Shown: positions 1,561 through 9,309 of the stretch, piece by piece | Numbering within the stretch: the stretch's first letter is position 1 | How the letters are laid out: each line of letters begins with the position of its first letter | Assembly (NCBI GenBank): GCA_019358915.1 | Contig: JAHHIM010000073.1 | Location: 1-64,000, forward strand | DNA from: Trichormus sp. ATA11-4-KO1 | GTDB taxonomy: Bacteria; Cyanobacteriota; Cyanobacteriia; Cyanobacteriales; Nostocaceae | Direction: 5' to 3' | DNA length: 64,000 nt | Notes under the pieces: generated by a model | What the model was told of the DNA's origin: nothing | The model's input: the letters and a program-made list of their open reading frames with translations, nothing else | Database searches by the model: none | Made by a program: the position numbers and the translations under genes

Positions 1561-2652
1561 ATGAGTTTGTGGCAGCGTCCCCTGAAACAATGGCAAATCA
1601 TAGCTGAAAACAAGCGTAATCCGTTCAGGTTAAATTCGCTCAAAAGCTTGGTATCACTTTTTTTACTAGGAACAGTATTGAGTGTGGCGATCGCTGCTTG
1701 CTCAGGTGGAAGTAATAATGTTGAAGTAACTCTTGTTTCCTTTGCCGTAACCAGAGGCGCACACGAAGCCATTATTCCCAAGTTTAAAGAACAGTGGAAG
1801 CAAGAACATAACCAAAATGTTGTTTTCCGACACAGCTATGGTGGTTCTGGTTCTCAAACTCGTGCCGTTATTGATGGATTAGGGGCAGATATTGTCCACT
1901 TAGCGCTGGCTGGAGACACCGAAAGAATTGAAAAAGCTGGACTAATTCAGCCAGGATGGGAAAAAGAATTTCCTCACAATAGCATTGTTTCTCAATCAGT
2001 GGCAGCAATTATTACTCGCCCAGGTAACCCCAAAGGCATCAAGACATGGGAAGATTTGGTAAAAGGCGATATCAGAATGATTACTGCTGACCCCAAAACA
2101 TCAGGTATTGCCCGATGGAATTTCTTAGCGCTGTGGAATGCTGTCATTAAAACTGGTGGAGATGAGGCTAAAGCTACTGAATTTGTGACTAATATTTATA
2201 AAAATGTGCCTATTTTAACTAAAGATGCACGGGAAGCCACTGATGTATTTGCCAGGCAAGGTCAAGGAGATGCCTTAATCAACTACGAAAATGAAGTCTT
2301 CCTGGCACAACAAAATGGTGAGAATATTGACTATGTTATCCCCGACGTAAATATATCCATCGATCATCCCATCGCCATAGTAGACAAGAACGTTGATAGA
2401 CATGGTAACCGTGAAGTGGCAGAAGCTTTCGTCAACTTTTTATTTACTCCAGAAGCACAAGAAGAGTTTGTCAAATTGGGATTTCGACCTGCAAATGAAA
2501 CATTAGCCCAAAATAAAGCAACTACAGACAAATTTCCCCAGGTAAAAACTTTAGGTACAGTTGAAGATTTTGGCGGTTGGGAAGCAATTGATCAGAAGTT
2601 TTTCGCAGATGGCGCTATTTTCGACCAAATTCAAACCCAAAGGAGACGGTGA
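1561..2652 (+). CDS. sbpA: Sulfate ABC transporter substrate-binding protein
   Basis: SYGGSGSQTRAVIDGL, DPKTSG and NYENE motifs; lipobox AAC; followed by cysT and cysW. Confidence 0.92.
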   Translation: MSLWQRPLKQWQIIAENKRNPFRLNSLKSLVSLFLLGTVLSVAIAACSGGSNNVEVTLVSFAVTRGAHEAIIPKFKEQWKQEHNQNVVFRHSYGGSGSQTRAVIDGLGADIVHLALAGDTERIEKAGLIQPGWEKEFPHNSIVSQSVAAIITRPGNPKGIKTWEDLVKGDIRMITADPKTSGIARWNFLALWNAVIKTGGDEAKATEFVTNIYKNVPILTKDAREATDVFARQGQGDALINYENEVFLAQQNGENIDYVIPDVNISIDHPIAIVDKNVDRHGNREVAEAFVNFLFTPEAQEEFVKLGFRPANETLAQNKATTDKFPQVKTLGTVEDFGGWEAIDQKFFADGAIFDQIQTQRRR

Positions 2653-2653
2653 T

Positions 2654-2730
2654 AGTCATTAGTCATTAGCCCTTCTCTACGAGACGCTACCGCGAACGGC
2701 CACGCTCAGGGTAAATCATTGGTCATTAGT
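2654..2730. repeat. STRR (GTCATTA-type) tract interrupted by a small dispersed repeat
   Basis: agtcattagtcattag...tcattggtcattag flanks cccttctctacgagacgctaccgcgaacggccacgctcaggg. Confidence 0.65.
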
Positions 2731-2766
2731 TAAATATTTTCAACTTCAAGAATTACAAATTACTTT

Positions 2767-3651
2767 ATGGCTTTATCCTCTCCTCCGTCCACTTCTGATC
2801 AATTCATTACTCCGAAAATTCCTCTTTGGCAGAGAATCTTACGTCAGTTATCCCAAATTCCTTGGACATGGCGGATTACGGTCGCATACCTAACCGTGAT
2901 GTTATTTCTTCCCGTAACGGCAATGTTTCTTAAAGCCAGTAGCGAACCTCTAGATAGGATTTGGGAAATTGCTACCAGCCCGATCGCGCTGGTGACATAT
3001 AATGTCACTTTCGTGACATCATTAATTGCAGCACTGTTAAATGGAGTCTTTGGGACGATAATTGCCTGGGTTTTAGTGCGCTACCAATTTCCACTAAAAA
3101 GAGTGATTGAGGCTTCAGTGGATCTACCCTTCGCTTTGCCATCAGCAGTTGCCGGGTTAACCCTGGCCACAGTGTACAGCAATAATGGCTGGATTGGCTC
3201 TTGGCTAGAACCTTTGGGAATTAAGGTAGCTTTCACTCGTTTGGGAGTGGGTGTAGCCATGACCTATATCTCACTGCCTTTTGTCGTGCGGACAGTGCAA
3301 CCTGTACTTCAGGAAATGGAACACGAAATCGAAGAAGCCGCCTGGTGTTTGGGTGCTTCTCAATGGCAAACCTTTTGGAAAGTGATTTTTCCACCTTTAC
3401 TGCCAACAATTTTAACTGGTGTGGCCTTGGGTTTCTCTCGTGCCGTGGGCGAGTATGGCTCGACAGTCATTATCGCTTCCAATACTCCCTTCAAAGATTT
3501 AATCGCACCTGTACTGATTTTTCAACGCTTAGAACAGTATGACTATACTGGTGCAACTATACTCGGCGCGGTGCTACTGCTAATTTCGTTGGTGTTACTG
3601 GTAGGAATTAATCTCTTACAAGCTTGGGCAAGAAGATATGACTCAAAATAA
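2767..3651 (+). CDS. cysT: Sulfate ABC transporter permease CysT
   Basis: [23 protein letters not shown] (EAA loop) and RAVGEYGS motifs. Confidence 0.92.
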
Positions 3652-4489
3652 TACCCCTTTTTCACAAAAGCCAACTAAACAGAAAAATTGGGTGCCAGTA
3701 ATTTTGATTGGCATCACCATCGCTTACTTAGGAATAATTCTCTACATCCCAGCGATCAACGTCTTTTACCAAGCTTTCAAAAAGGGATTTGGGCCATTTT
3801 TATCTAACCTCACGCACCCTGAATTTATCCATGCAGCCTGGCTGACATTCTTGCTAGCTTTGATTACTGTACCTTTAAATACAGTATTTGGACTTTGTGC
3901 CGCATGGGCGATCGCACGGCATAAATTTCCCGGTCGCGCTTTAGTTTTAAGTATTATTGACCTGCCCTTTTCTATTTCGCCTGTGGTGGCAGGTTTGATG
4001 ATTGTACTACTCTACGGACGGCAAGGATGGTTTGGCCCTTGGCTCCAAGCTAATAATATCAATGTGATCTTTGCCCTTCCCGGTATGGTCATAGCTACAG
4101 CATTCGTCACTATGCCCTTTGTGGCGCGGGAAGTAATTCCTGTCTTAGAAGAAGCCGGGAAAGATCAAGAAGAAGCAGGTAAAACCTTGGGTGCAAACGA
4201 ATGGCAGATATTTTGGCGCGTTACTCTGCCAAGTATTCGCTGGGGTCTACTTTATGGCGTAATTTTGACTAATGCCCGCTCAATGGGTGAATTTGGGGCA
4301 GTTTCGGTAGTATCTGGCAATATTGGTGGTAAAACTCAAAGCTTACCTTTATTTGTAGAGGACGCTTACAAACAGTATCAAACTGAAGCCGCATACTCGG
4401 CGGCTGTCCTGTTGGCACTACTAGCAGTAGTGACTCTGGTACTGAAGGAAATTTTGGAACGGAAAACCCGCATTAAAGATGTGGAGTGA
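3638..4489 (+). CDS. cysW: Sulfate ABC transporter permease CysW
   Basis: [13 protein letters not shown] and [16 protein letters not shown] motifs; overlaps the cysT stop. Confidence 0.92.
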
Positions 4490-4562
4490 AGTACCACTAT
4501 TAAACAAGCCGACGGCACGACCAGCAGTCGGCATGAAAAATTTATAATGCTTCAGTGGCAAT

Positions 4563-5420
4563 TTATTTTTGAGTTGCACTATGGGGAGGAGTAGACACTA
4601 CTTTTTTGGCTAAACCCAGAGTCTGCAACAACTGAATACTCCACCAAGTAATGTCGATCTCCCACCAAGACAATCCAGATTTTGCCATATGGGGATAAGT
4701 GTGATGGTTGTTATGCCATCCTTCTCCATAGGTGACTATAGATACCCACCAAAGATTACGTGCGCCATCATTGGCATCAAAGGTACGATAACCCCACAGG
4801 TGCGATGCAGAGTTGACAAACCAAGTGGAGTGCCACAGCAAAACTGACCTGACAAATATTCCGTAGATGACAAAAGACCAACCCCCCAAAACATACAGCA
4901 GCAATCCCAAGGGAATTTGCATGAGTAGGAAGTAGCGATCTAGCCAGCGATAGAAAGGTTGTCGTGCTAGGTCGGGCGCATATTTTTGATAAACTTCATA
5001 ATCAAAAAACTCAGGACGTGGGTAGAAAATCCACAACATATGGCTCCACCAAAATCCTCGTTGGGCAGAGTAGGGATCTAAGTTGATATCTTCCGTGTGG
5101 GCGTGATGTTGGCGGTGTCCACCAATCCAGAAAATCGGCCCTCCTTGTAAAGCCAATGCTCCAATCGTGGCGATCGCATATTCTAACCACTTAGGTACTT
5201 GAAAACTTTTATGGCTCAGCAGACGATGATATCCTAGACAAATACCGATACTCCCAAACAACCAGTGGAGAAACAGCAGCAAACCCAGTGCTGACCAAGA
5301 GAAAAACCAAGGAGCCAGAAGAGCTAAGGCATGAAATGCAGCAAAAAATGCCACGTTCACCCACCTAAGACGAGGTGAATTTCCTCTCTCAGGGGCAAAC
5401 GCCAGAAACTTCGCGGTCAT
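4563..5420 (-). CDS. desC: Delta-9 acyl-lipid/acyl-CoA desaturase (DesC-like)
   Basis: Three His boxes HRLLSH, HRQHH and HNNHH; GEGWHNNHH motif. Confidence 0.85.
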   Translation of the reverse strand: MTAKFLAFAPERGNSPRLRWVNVAFFAAFHALALLAPWFFSWSALGLLLFLHWLFGSIGICLGYHRLLSHKSFQVPKWLEYAIATIGALALQGGPIFWIGGHRQHHAHTEDINLDPYSAQRGFWWSHMLWIFYPRPEFFDYEVYQKYAPDLARQPFYRWLDRYFLLMQIPLGLLLYVLGGWSFVIYGIFVRSVLLWHSTWFVNSASHLWGYRTFDANDGARNLWWVSIVTYGEGWHNNHHTYPHMAKSGLSWWEIDITWWSIQLLQTLGLAKKVVSTPPHSATQK

Positions 5421-5520
5421 ACAAATTCCTGTTGATGGATCATGAAGCGATTTGCTTTTTTTTGGTGCAACCCTAGCAGGATTTCACCTGCTCTGCACAG
5501 CAGTTCGTTACAGTAAAAAA

Positions 5521-5586
5521 TAGCAAGTTTCACTTACATTTGTTATGCTAGCAGACCTGTAACTTTGATGCAAGTGGCACTTGCAT
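5521..5586. promoter_or_regulatory. Two candidate TetR operators between the desaturase and tetR
   Basis: Perfect 9-1-9 palindrome ATGCAAGTG-G-CACTTGCAT at 5568-5586; degenerate copy TAGCAAGTTTCACTTACAT at 5521-5539 (14/19). Confidence 0.65.
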
Positions 5587-5594
5587 TATTCCCT

Positions 5595-6812
5595 ATGTCA
5601 TCTCAACCTATTTCAGCTCGTCAACGTCTGATTCAATCAGCACTGGAATTATTTACTGCTCAGGGAGTCAGCGCCACCACAACTCGCCAAATTGCTGAAA
5701 AAGCAGAAGTTAATGAAGTTACTTTATTCCGGCATTTTGGTAACAAGCATGGGCTATTATTGTCTGTGCTGGAAGAATCCGCCGCCTTCAAAAATTTAGG
5801 TGAGTCCCTAGTGCAAAGGGCAACTCCTCCTGGTGATGTGTACCAGGCACTGAAAGATTATGCAAGTGATACATTGCATGCATTAGAACGGATACCCGAA
5901 TTAGTGCGGTCTGTAGTGGGTGAAGCCGACCAGTACCCAACAGAAAATCGCCGCGCTTTAGGACGTGGATTAACAGAAGCTAACCGCTACGTGGCGGAAT
6001 ATTTAGCCACTGTCATCCAACAGGGAGACTTAAATACTTATCTCCCCGCAGAAAAATTAGCCAGTTTACTCAATGGCATGATCCTGGGATATGCCGTAAT
6101 TGAATTCACCAGTGAATTTCATGAACTGTGGGAAGATCGGGATGATTTTCTGGTGAATTTAGTAGAGTTATTTTTACATGGAGCTATGCCACCTTCAGGA
6201 AAATCAGCAACAGGAAGGGAAATTGTGAGGGAAGTGGCTGATTTACCTGCTGGTTTAGTCCACCAAATTTTGCAACAAGCCAGGAAGTTAGGAACACAAG
6301 ATTATGCCTTGGCTTATGTATTATTTGGTGCTGGCTTGTCTCCAAAAGAAATTGTCAGTTTACAGCGAAACCATCAAATATGCGATACTTCCGGGCACTT
6401 TCTCCAGATTACGACTCCAGGGAACCGTCGCCAAGTGCCAATTAATCAGTGGATTCTGGGCAAACGCTATGGTTCCTACAGCAATAATCCCTTAATAAAA
6501 TGGTTAAAAAATCGTAAAGATAGTCAACCCTCGATGTTTCTCAACGAAGTTGGTCAACCAATTTCCGAATCTGATCTGTTGAAATATTGGGAAAAATGGA
6601 CTGAGGGACTGTTAACGCCTCAAGGACAACAGCCAGCGATCGCTCAAGCACAACATACTTGGTGTGTGGAAATGTTGATGCGAGGCATGAGCTGGGAAAA
6701 CCTGAGTCTGCTGACAGGTTGCGATCGCACCCTATTACAATCCTATGCTAAGAGAGCCAAAGAAAAAGCAGCCCTAGAGCAAGCAACCCGTTTAGATCAC
6801 AAGCCTGCGTAG
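5595..6812 (+). CDS. TetR-family regulator with a C-terminal degenerate tyrosine-recombinase-like domain
   Basis: N-terminal TetR HTH (TTRQIAEKAEVNEVTLFRHFGNKHGLL). The C-terminal ~190 aa follow the integrase catalytic-domain pattern. Likely start is ATG 5595, since the ORF-track start 5565 overlaps the operator. Confidence 0.85.
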   Translation: MSSQPISARQRLIQSALELFTAQGVSATTTRQIAEKAEVNEVTLFRHFGNKHGLLLSVLEESAAFKNLGESLVQRATPPGDVYQALKDYASDTLHALERIPELVRSVVGEADQYPTENRRALGRGLTEANRYVAEYLATVIQQGDLNTYLPAEKLASLLNGMILGYAVIEFTSEFHELWEDRDDFLVNLVELFLHGAMPPSGKSATGREIVREVADLPAGLVHQILQQARKLGTQDYALAYVLFGAGLSPKEIVSLQRNHQICDTSGHFLQITTPGNRRQVPINQWILGKRYGSYSNNPLIKWLKNRKDSQPSMFLNEVGQPISESDLLKYWEKWTEGLLTPQGQQPAIAQAQHTWCVEMLMRGMSWENLSLLTGCDRTLLQSYAKRAKEKAALEQATRLDHKPA

Positions 6813-7671: not shown

Positions 7672-7965
7672 ATGAACAAAGGCGAATTAGTTGATGCCGT
7701 AGCTGAAAAGGCTAGTGTTACCAAAAAACAAGCAGATGCCGTCTTAACTGCCGCTTTGGAAACGATTATTGAAGCAGTATCTTCTGGCGATAAAGTCACG
7801 CTGGTAGGATTTGGCTCTTTTGAATCACGGGAACGTAAAGCTCGTGAAGGTCGTAACCCCAAAACTAATGAAAAGATGGAAATTCCAGCGACCAGAGTTC
7901 CTGCTTTCTCTGCTGGTAAGCTCTTCAGAGAAAAGGTAGCACCCCCAAAAGAACCAAAAGAATAG
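7672..7965 (+). CDS. hup: DNA-binding protein HU
   Basis: MNKGELVDAVA...LVGFGSFESRERKAREGRNPKT; AGGAG RBS; upstream palindrome TGAGTAT-AA-ATACTCA (7553-7568). Confidence 0.95.
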   Translation: MNKGELVDAVAEKASVTKKQADAVLTAALETIIEAVSSGDKVTLVGFGSFESRERKAREGRNPKTNEKMEIPATRVPAFSAGKLFREKVAPPKEPKE

Positions 7966-7991: not shown

Positions 7992-9146
7992 ATGCGGCAA
8001 CCAGCTCACGGGGGAAATTTAGCCTGGGCAGCAGCACTGGCTGGCTGTCCCCCTGAGGCTATTCTGGATTTTTCTGCCAGCATCAGTCCATTGGGTCCAC
8101 CAAATAGTGCGATCGCGGCTATTCAGTTGCAAATTGGTAATCTTAGACACTATCCAGATCCAGATTACAGTGAACTGAGACTTGCTCTCAGTCACTTCCA
8201 TCAATTGCCTTCTGAGTGGATTCTGCCGGGTAACGGTTCAGCAGAATTACTTACTTTAGCAGGTAGGGAATTAGCAGAATTATCCGCAACAACGTTAATT
8301 ACTCCAGCCTTTGGCGACTACTACCGAACCCTAGTGGCATACAACGCTAAAGTTCTGGAGTTTCCCCTTTCTTTGGGGAGTGGGGATGAGGGGACAAGAG
8401 GACAAGGGGACAAGAGGACAAGGGGACAAGAGCGCAAAACTTTCTCCCCATCTCCCCATCCCCCCATCTCCCTATCCCCCCATCTCCCCATCCCCCCAGC
8501 CAAAAATCACGGGTTATTGCTAAATAATCCCCACAACCCGACGGGTAGGTTATTTTCACGAGAGGCAATTTTACCCTACTTGCAGCAATACGCCCTGGTA
8601 GTGGTGGATGAAGCGTTTATGGATTTTGTGCCTCCTGATGGGGAACAAAGCCTCATTGAGGTGGTAGAGGAATATCCAAATTTAGTAGTATTGCGATCGC
8701 TGACGAAATTTTACAGTCTTCCGGGACTGAGATTAGGATATGCGATCGCTCACCCTGACCGTCTTGCTAAATGGCAGTTGTGGCGTGACCCTTGGCCTGT
8801 AAACACCTTGGCGGCGGCGGCGGCGGTTGCGGCACTCCAAGACCAGCAGTTTCAAGAACTTACCTGGAAATGGCTACCACCTGCACGAAACCAACTCTTT
8901 CAGGGTTTAGCGGCAATTCCAGGTTTGCAGCCTCTAGAAGGCGCTGCTAACTTCTTACTTGTGGAATCACAACAGTCGAGTTCGCAGTTGCAACGACAAT
9001 TACTCCAGCATCACCAAATTTTAATTCGTGATTGCCTAAGTTTTCCAGAACTAGGCGATCGCTTTTTCCGGGTTGCTGTACTTTCTGAGTTTGATAACCA
9101 ACGCCTATTAACAGCGCTATATTCAGTGCTGAGTGCTGAGTGCTGA
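7992..9146 (+). CDS. cobD: Threonine-phosphate decarboxylase (cobalamin biosynthesis) with an in-frame repeat insertion
   Basis: [36 protein letters not shown] and [15 protein letters not shown] (PLP Lys) motifs. Confidence 0.9.
8374..8497 (+). repeat. Bipartite (GGGGACAA)n / (CCCCATCT)n element inside cobD
   Basis: Purine-rich 8-mer tract, CAAAACTTTCT spacer, then a pyrimidine-rich 8-mer tract; translated in frame. Confidence 0.85.
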
Positions 9147-9155
9147 GTGCTGAGT
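9125..9155 (+). repeat. STRR heptamer (AGTGCTG)n
   Basis: About 4 tandem copies; supplies the cobD stop codon. Confidence 0.9.
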
Positions 9156-9183
9156 AAAAAGCCAAAAATAGAAATATAGATCC

Positions 9184-9309
9184 ATGCCCAATGCCCAATG
9201 CCCAATGCCCAATGCCCAATGCCCAATGCCCAATGCCCAATGCCCAATGCCCAATGCCCAATGCCCAATGCCCAATGCCCAATGACCAATGCCCAATGAC
9301 TAATGACTA
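9184..9309 (+). repeat. STRR heptamer (ATGCCCA)n
   Basis: 14 perfect units followed by ATGACCA, ATGCCCA, ATGACTA, ATGACTA; the last unit carries the next start codon. Confidence 0.95.

Follow-up and report, generated by a model that had tools for sequence, protein, structure and literature searches.

Within the 64,000-nucleotide window, by which we mean the whole stretch of DNA analysed, the open reading frame at 5595-6812 (plus strand) encodes, counted from the ATG at 5595, a 405-residue protein in which a TetR module is followed by a domain of tyrosine-recombinase type. A desaturase gene lies 174 bp away in the divergent orientation. The genes and protein segments at the locus are:

4508..4525, minus strand: hairpin resembling a terminator, downstream of the desaturase (from a consensus scan only; 5 such hairpins versus 2.6 expected in shuffles)
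4563..5420, minus strand: delta-9 acyl-lipid desaturase (285 aa, DesC2 type) and predicted target of the regulator (Pfam FA_desaturase, length, context)
5595..6194, plus strand: TetR module (HTH and ligand/dimer domain), residues 1-200 (Pfam, structure model, Foldseek)
6195..6233, plus strand: flexible linker of variable length (pLDDT below 50 at residues 201-211; length differs widely in the alignment)
6234..6812, plus strand: catalytically dead tyrosine-recombinase catalytic (CAT) domain, lacking a core-binding domain (Pfam, profile alignment, structure matches, residue scoring)

The desaturase gene is 858 nt long, equal in length to all4991 of PCC 7120 (858 nt; PMC2593844), and its length, locus tag and gene context suggest that it is DesC2, the sn-2-specific desaturase class (PMC4390868). 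The other delta-9 gene of this genome encodes a 272-residue protein (54% identity) and heads a three-desaturase cluster like all1599-all1597. A DesC2-type gene (at least 63% identity) was present in all 33 fusion-bearing genomes of the phylum sample and in 20 other genomes, and the desaturase adjoined the regulator in 132 of the 132 fused loci examined.

Many DesC2-type paralogues without a TetR gene (L140-L168; for example L140:2879-5268, L143:578-3862, L144:2030-5825 and L145:2087-5164) adjoin acsF, hemN, hemF, bchE or a psbA copy, as named by NCBIfam, and presumably heme oxygenase. Their neighbourhood looks like a low-oxygen gene cluster, raising the possibility that DesC2-type genes form two differently regulated classes. 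Around the locus itself, a sulfate ABC transporter cluster (window 1561-4489; binding protein named by NCBIfam) converges on the desaturase, and an HU gene (window 7672-7965) downstream of the regulator is not syntenic: of 110 loci, the window's own alone gave a match. Short tandem repeats at 8380-8500 and 8947-9289, in and just after a cobD-like gene, produce low-complexity ORFs; heptamer-like short tandem repeats are typical of Nostocales.

The ATG at 5595 is the likely start codon, because an upstream in-frame ATG, at which the ORF track begins, sits within a DNA palindrome (operator B, below) whose distance to the ATG among homologues is 7, 8, 9, 11 nt or more, so that frame is not kept. 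Start annotation is unreliable across the family: the ATG in operator B (window 5568-5594) is often called, giving 414-residue forms, and the annotated start of the PCC 7120 alr4992 record (P0202, 366 aa) falls within the HTH.

Fold, catalytic residues and surface of the appended domain

Pfam placed TetR_N (PF00440) at residues 12-57 (E 4.9e-14, above the cut-off) and Phage_integrase at residues 222-373, for which the whole protein scored 26.9 bits against a cut-off of 27.1 and the C-domain alone 29.5 bits. Against NCBIfam the C-domain matched XerC (E 1.8e-5), which was the best model for six of the seven C-domains scanned, the seventh having no match. The full-length structure model (pTM 0.56) consisted of two well-folded halves with a low-confidence linker (201-211) between them. 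In the first half an all-helical ligand/dimer domain (model helices 64-195) follows the HTH, and Foldseek matched TetR structures over about 195 columns, with fatty-acyl-binding FadR structures among the matches and not above other TetRs. The AlphaFold2 model of the C-domain (67 homologues; pLDDT 95.6, pTM 0.90) found as its best match among 48,161 solved chains XerA (5hxy; Z 20.5, rmsd 3.7, 177 aligned); XerH (Z 17.8), another archaeal Xer (4a8e; Z 17.1, rmsd 1.8, 147 aligned) and other recombinases came next. Foldseek agreed on the recombinase fold (TM 0.71-0.75), and the 30 ESM Atlas matches comprised 22 Phage_integrase clusters and eight unnamed clusters. A homodimer prediction for the C-domain scored 0.00, which speaks neither for nor against oligomerisation.

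Profile-profile alignment of the C-domain family with 12 intact tyrosine recombinases (eight from the same genome and four XerD-like proteins from others) gave a probability of 98.6 over 172 columns and located the catalytic positions, which were scored in 185 domains: the 167 of 197 stored proteins that cover the domain, 30 fragments being dropped, and 18 distant loci. These positions, and a segment specific to the family, are:

6339..6341, plus strand: S249, where active enzymes have their first catalytic Arg (Ser in 148 and Arg in 8 of the 185 domains)
6444..6491, plus strand: segment N284-P299 (NQWILGKRYGSYxNNP), conserved in the family and for the most part inserted relative to active recombinases (9-column template gap in the profile alignment)
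6642..6653, plus strand: A350-Q353, the HxxR position (of 185 domains, 2 have the His and 34 the Arg)
6720..6746, plus strand: C376 to Y384, from the H/W position (W in 15 and H in none of 185 domains) to the Tyr position (Tyr kept in 170, replaced by F, L or M in 15)

The catalytic-Lys hairpin maps to T274/P275, with no Lys, and a Lys anywhere in the hairpin occurs in only 8 of 185 domains. Among R, H, R, H/W and Y, none is kept in 5 domains, one in 142, two in 27, three in 11 and more than three in 0. Of the R-K-H-R-H/W-Y set of active tyrosine recombinases this copy thus keeps Tyr alone, and its N-terminal half, where a core-binding domain would precede CAT, is TetR. The C376-Y384 distance is one residue shorter than in XerD-like controls, and E252 is kept in 181 of 185 domains. 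Distant members still keep single catalytic residues, namely the first Arg (8 of the 185), the second Arg (34) and Trp (15), which counts against total erasure. Alignment and structure models together confirm the appended domain as a catalytically dead tyrosine-recombinase CAT fold.

The initial annotation had described a complete TetR module, divergent from a desaturase, fused to a domesticated, catalytically dead recombinase fold, and had held that the lack of a structural match or homologues with an intact catalytic set would speak against it. Both halves were recovered by Pfam, the XerA match and Foldseek, and the desaturase neighbour by Pfam FA_desaturase and by its synteny in homologues. 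The residues given as Ser259, AQAQ 360-363, Cys386 and Tyr394, in a numbering ten higher, are those that the profile alignment places at S249, A350-Q353, C376 and Y384. The structural comparison returned the recombinase fold, and in the homologue survey catalysis was lost family-wide, with 0 of 185 domains intact, which argues against recent decay.

Other parts of the dead domain are newly conserved, namely segment 284-299, in which N284, W286, I287, G289, Y292, G293, N298 and P299 are each present in 159-167 of 167 domains, and the long C-terminal helix. Also conserved is a basic cluster (K290, R291, K305, R307, K308), which could touch DNA, the surface patches being placed by alignment only. 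A helix starting TRQ reads DNA in XerD; the recognition helix starts with TRQ in XerD-like controls and with an acidic S-E-S-D in the dead domain (E325 in 128 of 185, E or D327 in 154 of 185). Net charge has a median of +1 in 65 diverse members, versus +6 to +20 in active domains, and is +5 in this copy. In 80 close loci the median dN/dS of the C-domain was 0.142 and the maximum 0.19, compared to 0.05 for the TetR half, at dS near 1. The domain is therefore under purifying selection and not decaying. With a single copy and fixed synteny in addition, a recently decayed recombinase or mobile element was rejected as its identity.

Operators and promoter of the desaturase gene

The 174-bp intergenic region contains two 17-bp palindromes of the form TGCAAGT-N3-ACTTGCA, which we predict to be operators. 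The elements are:

5509..5514, plus strand: possible, weak -10 (TACAGT) of a tetR promoter (similar element in 13 of 43 loci only, distance variable)
5522..5538, no strand: operator A, AGCAAGTTTCACTTACA, covering the predicted start of desaturase transcription (conservation; second-best PWM site in the genome)
5545..5553, minus strand: predicted extended -10 of the desaturase promoter, TG-C-TAGCAT (conserved TAnnnT spacing; below the generic scanner threshold)
5568..5573, minus strand: predicted -35, TTGCAT (3 of 6 to TTGACA), within operator B (spacing to the -10)
5569..5585, no strand: operator B, a perfect 7-3-7 palindrome, TGCAAGTGGCACTTGCA, 47 bp from operator A (best PWM site in the genome, 28.5 bits)

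Of the 132 fused loci, 131 have a palindrome pair 44-53 bp apart in front of the desaturase and one (L139) has two sites 85 bp apart; a pair at 44-53 bp occurs in 6 of 13 TetR-only loci, the other seven having one site, and in 0 of 28 desaturase loci without an adjacent TetR gene, these counts coming from a Nostoc-rich set with some duplicates and so not being independent. In a PWM scan of the 5.97-Mb genome, operators A and B were the top two sites, a rank that is partly circular because the matrix was built from these same sites. No further site in this genome stood above the shuffled background (75 versus 57-66 matches over 10 bits) to indicate a wider regulon.

In 144 of 145 loci a TTGCAn hexamer on the desaturase strand is followed by a TAnnnT element, usually with an extended-10 G or TG, at a distance of 17 nt in 123 loci and 18 nt in 21; this fixed spacing would place operator B over the -35 and operator A over the start site. 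A generic promoter scanner did not call the desaturase promoter, the -35 of which is weak. Transcription of tetR from the weak TACAGT element would possibly start at the edge of operator A. L179 and L182, two loci grouping with the Gloeobacter protein, have the regulator gene in front of the desaturase and in the same direction; there the operator pair is found between the end of the regulator and the desaturase, with none before the regulator. The palindromes thus stay with the desaturase and not with the regulator, indicating that they belong to the desaturase promoter. By conservation and position, then, a palindromic operator lies in the promoter of the gene adjacent to this TetR, and the two conserved palindromes over the predicted -35 and start site are new here.

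Across 39 diverse fused loci, no flanking bases beyond the operators and the -10 were conserved, and the variation in operator spacing falls between the -10 and operator A. Spacing that varies from 44 to 53 bp argues against a rigid bridge between two dimers, and phase-locked bridging of the operators was rejected. In a TetR-only clade of family f29 (L184, L187, L189, L191-L193, L195 and L197), the spacer after operator B is much more conserved than in fused loci, with a consensus near gtggaAtatcgttaggct.aatgtca and TTGACA on the opposite strand, which may reflect shared ancestry or the site of another factor.

Distribution of the fusion and orthologues without the domain

Among 401 cyanobacterial genomes of the class, 208 contained the C-domain and 232 the TetR module. 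The fusion gene is single copy, and its spread is in keeping with the initial suggestion that the architecture is widespread and annotated only as TetR. A phylum-wide sample gave strong matches in 33 of 301 genomes and weak ones (24-28% identity) in 10 more, of which the four inspected were intact XerD-like genes. A search of 1.84 billion representatives returned 78 matches, the longest at most 462 aa. By source names, members are known from Nodularia, Nostoc, Anabaena and others, and from Gloeobacter kilaueensis (P0162), in which the TetR ligand domain looks partly eroded (helix ~125-145 replaced) and the C-domain is intact. The PCC 7120 orthologue, alr4992, is 79% identical and adjoins a DesC2-type desaturase, making alr4992/all4991 the model-strain counterpart of this locus. 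Gloeobacter is the earliest-branching cyanobacterial lineage, and its possession of the fusion suggests that the fusion is probably ancient, with transfer as an alternative origin of the distribution.

Some orthologues consist of the TetR module alone. In family f29 the module is present in 22 of 23 genomes and the domain in one of 23, and in genus g56 four genomes have 237-249-aa frames ending after the linker, one of which (L153) ends in a Pro/Ala-rich linker remnant. The 13 TetR-only orthologues retain operator and desaturase synteny, 12 of them forming one clade and L153 being independent. A quick tree nested the TetR-only rows among fused rows with weak support (81-86) and put L153 beside Nostocales rows (support 84), a position consistent with secondary loss of the domain in L153. 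The domain was thus lost, or was never present, in at least two lineages, so that its benefit is conditional. In two further genomes, G459 (L169) and G597, TetR and C-domain lie in separate adjacent open frames, for which a frameshift, a sequencing error or a true split are possible.

Within the open-access literature and a few supplements, no description was found of a fusion of TetR with a lone CAT domain or of alr4992; the accessible part of a recombinase survey (10.1101/542381) describes no TetR-recombinase fusion, and the Nodularia CCY9414 supplementary files gave no entry for the desaturase or the TetR under the terms searched. Within the literature covered, this would be the first chromosomal case of a one-component regulator that carries a CAT domain alone. 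The family is real and conserved, and apparently uncharacterised. For about half of the cyanobacterial genomes sampled it points to a candidate regulator of sn-2 delta-9 desaturation, with a candidate operator and promoter, and the natural TetR-only orthologues and the rearranged locus provide ready controls for the contribution of the domain.

Proposed regulation and the role of the dead domain

We propose that the regulator acts locally, as a repressor dedicated to the DesC2-type delta-9 desaturase gene. In this model, TetR dimers would bind the two 17-bp palindromes, over the -35 and over the start site, and block RNA polymerase, and a ligand in the TetR pocket would release them. The CAT domain, derived from XerC/D, would have been captured early in cyanobacterial history and be long dead as an enzyme; dispensable for operator reading, it would serve, through its insert and C-terminal helix, as an accessory protein-contact or allosteric module for second-site occupancy or partner docking. 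We hold the model as a whole to be reasonably likely. Among its parts, repression of the desaturase is probable on the sequence evidence, and binding of the palindromes by the TetR module is inferred from the same evidence. A saturated acyl signal, as for DesT, is the most likely ligand, and this analogy stands about an even chance of holding. The accessory role of the dead domain is a tentative assignment, somewhat short of even.

The closest parallel is DesT of Pseudomonas aeruginosa, the TetR repressor of desCB, which is divergent from a delta-9 desaturase at 158 bp (PMC3511530) and is released by saturated acyl-CoA (PMC10634369). TetR genes less than 200 bp from a divergent gene usually repress that gene (PMC3511530), and both DesT (158 bp) and the present protein (174 bp) fall within this distance of a delta-9 desaturase. 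In contrast to DesT, for which the parts of the sources consulted describe no extra domain, the present protein carries one, and its target is an acyl-lipid (sn-2) desaturase. DesT was absent among the listed NCBIfam and PDB matches of the protein, and the likeness is one of arrangement. The arrangement is that of a TetR beside a delta-9 desaturase with predicted operators in the desaturase promoter, and because these overlap the predicted -35 and start and accompany the desaturase in rearranged loci, the protein is very likely a DesT-like desaturase repressor. Since TetR-only orthologues keep operator and synteny, the TetR module alone would account for operator recognition. PfsR (sll1392) of Synechocystis PCC 6803, an autoregulated TetR of iron homeostasis (PMC4092027), is likewise a characterised cyanobacterial TetR, but at 203 aa without an extra domain it belongs to another family by architecture and was rejected as the identity of this protein.

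The role of the dead domain is where the readings diverge. The initial annotation had favoured a second DNA-binding or bending function, and the same repressor could use the domain as a sequence-independent arm on the 30-bp spacer over the -10, like the CAT domain of SroF or MrpR. The fold does match DNA-bound recombinases and also SroF (Z 13.0) and MrpR (Z 11.9), basic residues are conserved, the net charge is +5 in this copy, and both operators occur in 131 of 132 fused loci compared to 6 of 13 TetR-only loci. However, 12 of these 13 belong to a single clade, and L153, which is independent of it, has both sites. The core-binding domain that closes the clamp in SroF (10.1101/2025.11.27.690993) is missing, and acidic recognition-helix positions, a shortened or lost Lys hairpin, the median charge of +1 and unconserved flanking bases also count against an arm. 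The DNA-binding suggestion is thus weakened; we regard such an arm as unlikely, though worth keeping in view, and a protein-contact or allosteric role fits slightly better. We give a smaller, but not negligible, chance to an extension of the preferred role, by analogy with Sar on SroF, in which the remodelled surface (insert, basic cluster and former active-site pocket) takes a second signal input by docking an acidic partner, for instance acyl-carrier protein or an antirepressor that mimics DNA. If this were true, a Xer catalytic domain would have become, as part of a host transcription factor and before Gloeobacter diverged, a sensor of a protein or of lipid status in the control of membrane desaturation.

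Class II activators also use a position like that of operator B relative to the -10, and with operator B at a fixed 17-18 nt from the -10 and a weak native -35, the protein might activate, or both activate and repress, the desaturase promoter, its extra domain contacting RNA polymerase. The second operator covers the predicted start site and the geometry of operator B is the same in TetR-only orthologues, which makes activation very unlikely. Domain-less lineages (f29, with the domain in 1 of 23 genomes, and the four g56 genomes ending after the linker) would suit a vestigial passenger of an old recombinase insertion, retained for fold stability only, but dN/dS of at most 0.19 in 80 of 80 comparisons, retention in 208 of 401 genomes and the gain of a conserved insert absent from active recombinases leave this highly improbable. 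Still less credit is due to residual cleavage or inversion of DNA at the two palindromes through Tyr384. Tyr in 170 and E252 in 181 of 185 domains, the second Arg in 34 and palindromes 47 bp apart would allow it, whereas no domain has more than three of R, H, R, H/W and Y, Tyr is F, L or M in 15, a hairpin Lys is present in only eight of 185, and the orientation of the -10 is constant in 144 of 145 loci. Moreover, MrpR keeps Tyr and Lys yet does not recombine (PMC10516654).

The preferred reading, a TetR repressor with a dead CAT domain as accessory module, would add a chromosomal one-component regulator of bacteria to the cases of domesticated recombinases, next to phage repressors and eukaryotic factors. 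Non-catalytic recombinase folds occur in DNA-bound regulatory complexes in Ndc10 (CBF3) and QRICH1/Zincore; these are eukaryotic and remote, and the structural match is weak (Z 6.0 each), where Z below 8 may mean a common arrangement only. Dead tyrosine recombinases as repressors are already established in SPbeta-family phages. Examples are MrpR, in which recombinase function is gone and three of the seven catalytic residues survive (PMC10516654), and SroF, whose monomer clamps DNA between its core-binding (CB) and CAT domains and which a DNA mimic inactivates (10.1101/2025.11.27.690993). The present protein resembles them in a recombinase fold with lost catalysis, some residues kept (Tyr, Glu) and use in repression. 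It differs in that MrpR and SroF are whole CB+CAT monomers of phages that read DNA themselves, whereas here CAT stands alone, on a chromosomal lipid gene, behind a TetR module that accounts for operator recognition; no CB+CAT clamp serves as DNA reader, since the CB domain is lacking and TetR-only orthologues keep the operator. The better match to XerA and XerH (Z 20.5 and 17.8) than to MrpR and SroF suggests an independent origin. With XerC, XerD and XerA the domain shares the fold, the Box I/II pattern and XerC as best NCBIfam model, but it lacks the core-binding domain and the catalytic set, adds the insert 284-299 and scores far below the family cut-offs. The weakest match of the 1.84-billion-representative search, a 279-aa Xer-like protein (P0199), has a degenerate active site of its own, with, by eye, GIK for GLR, no hairpin Lys, Y where H or W is expected and F in place of Tyr, and is possibly another dead Xer family.
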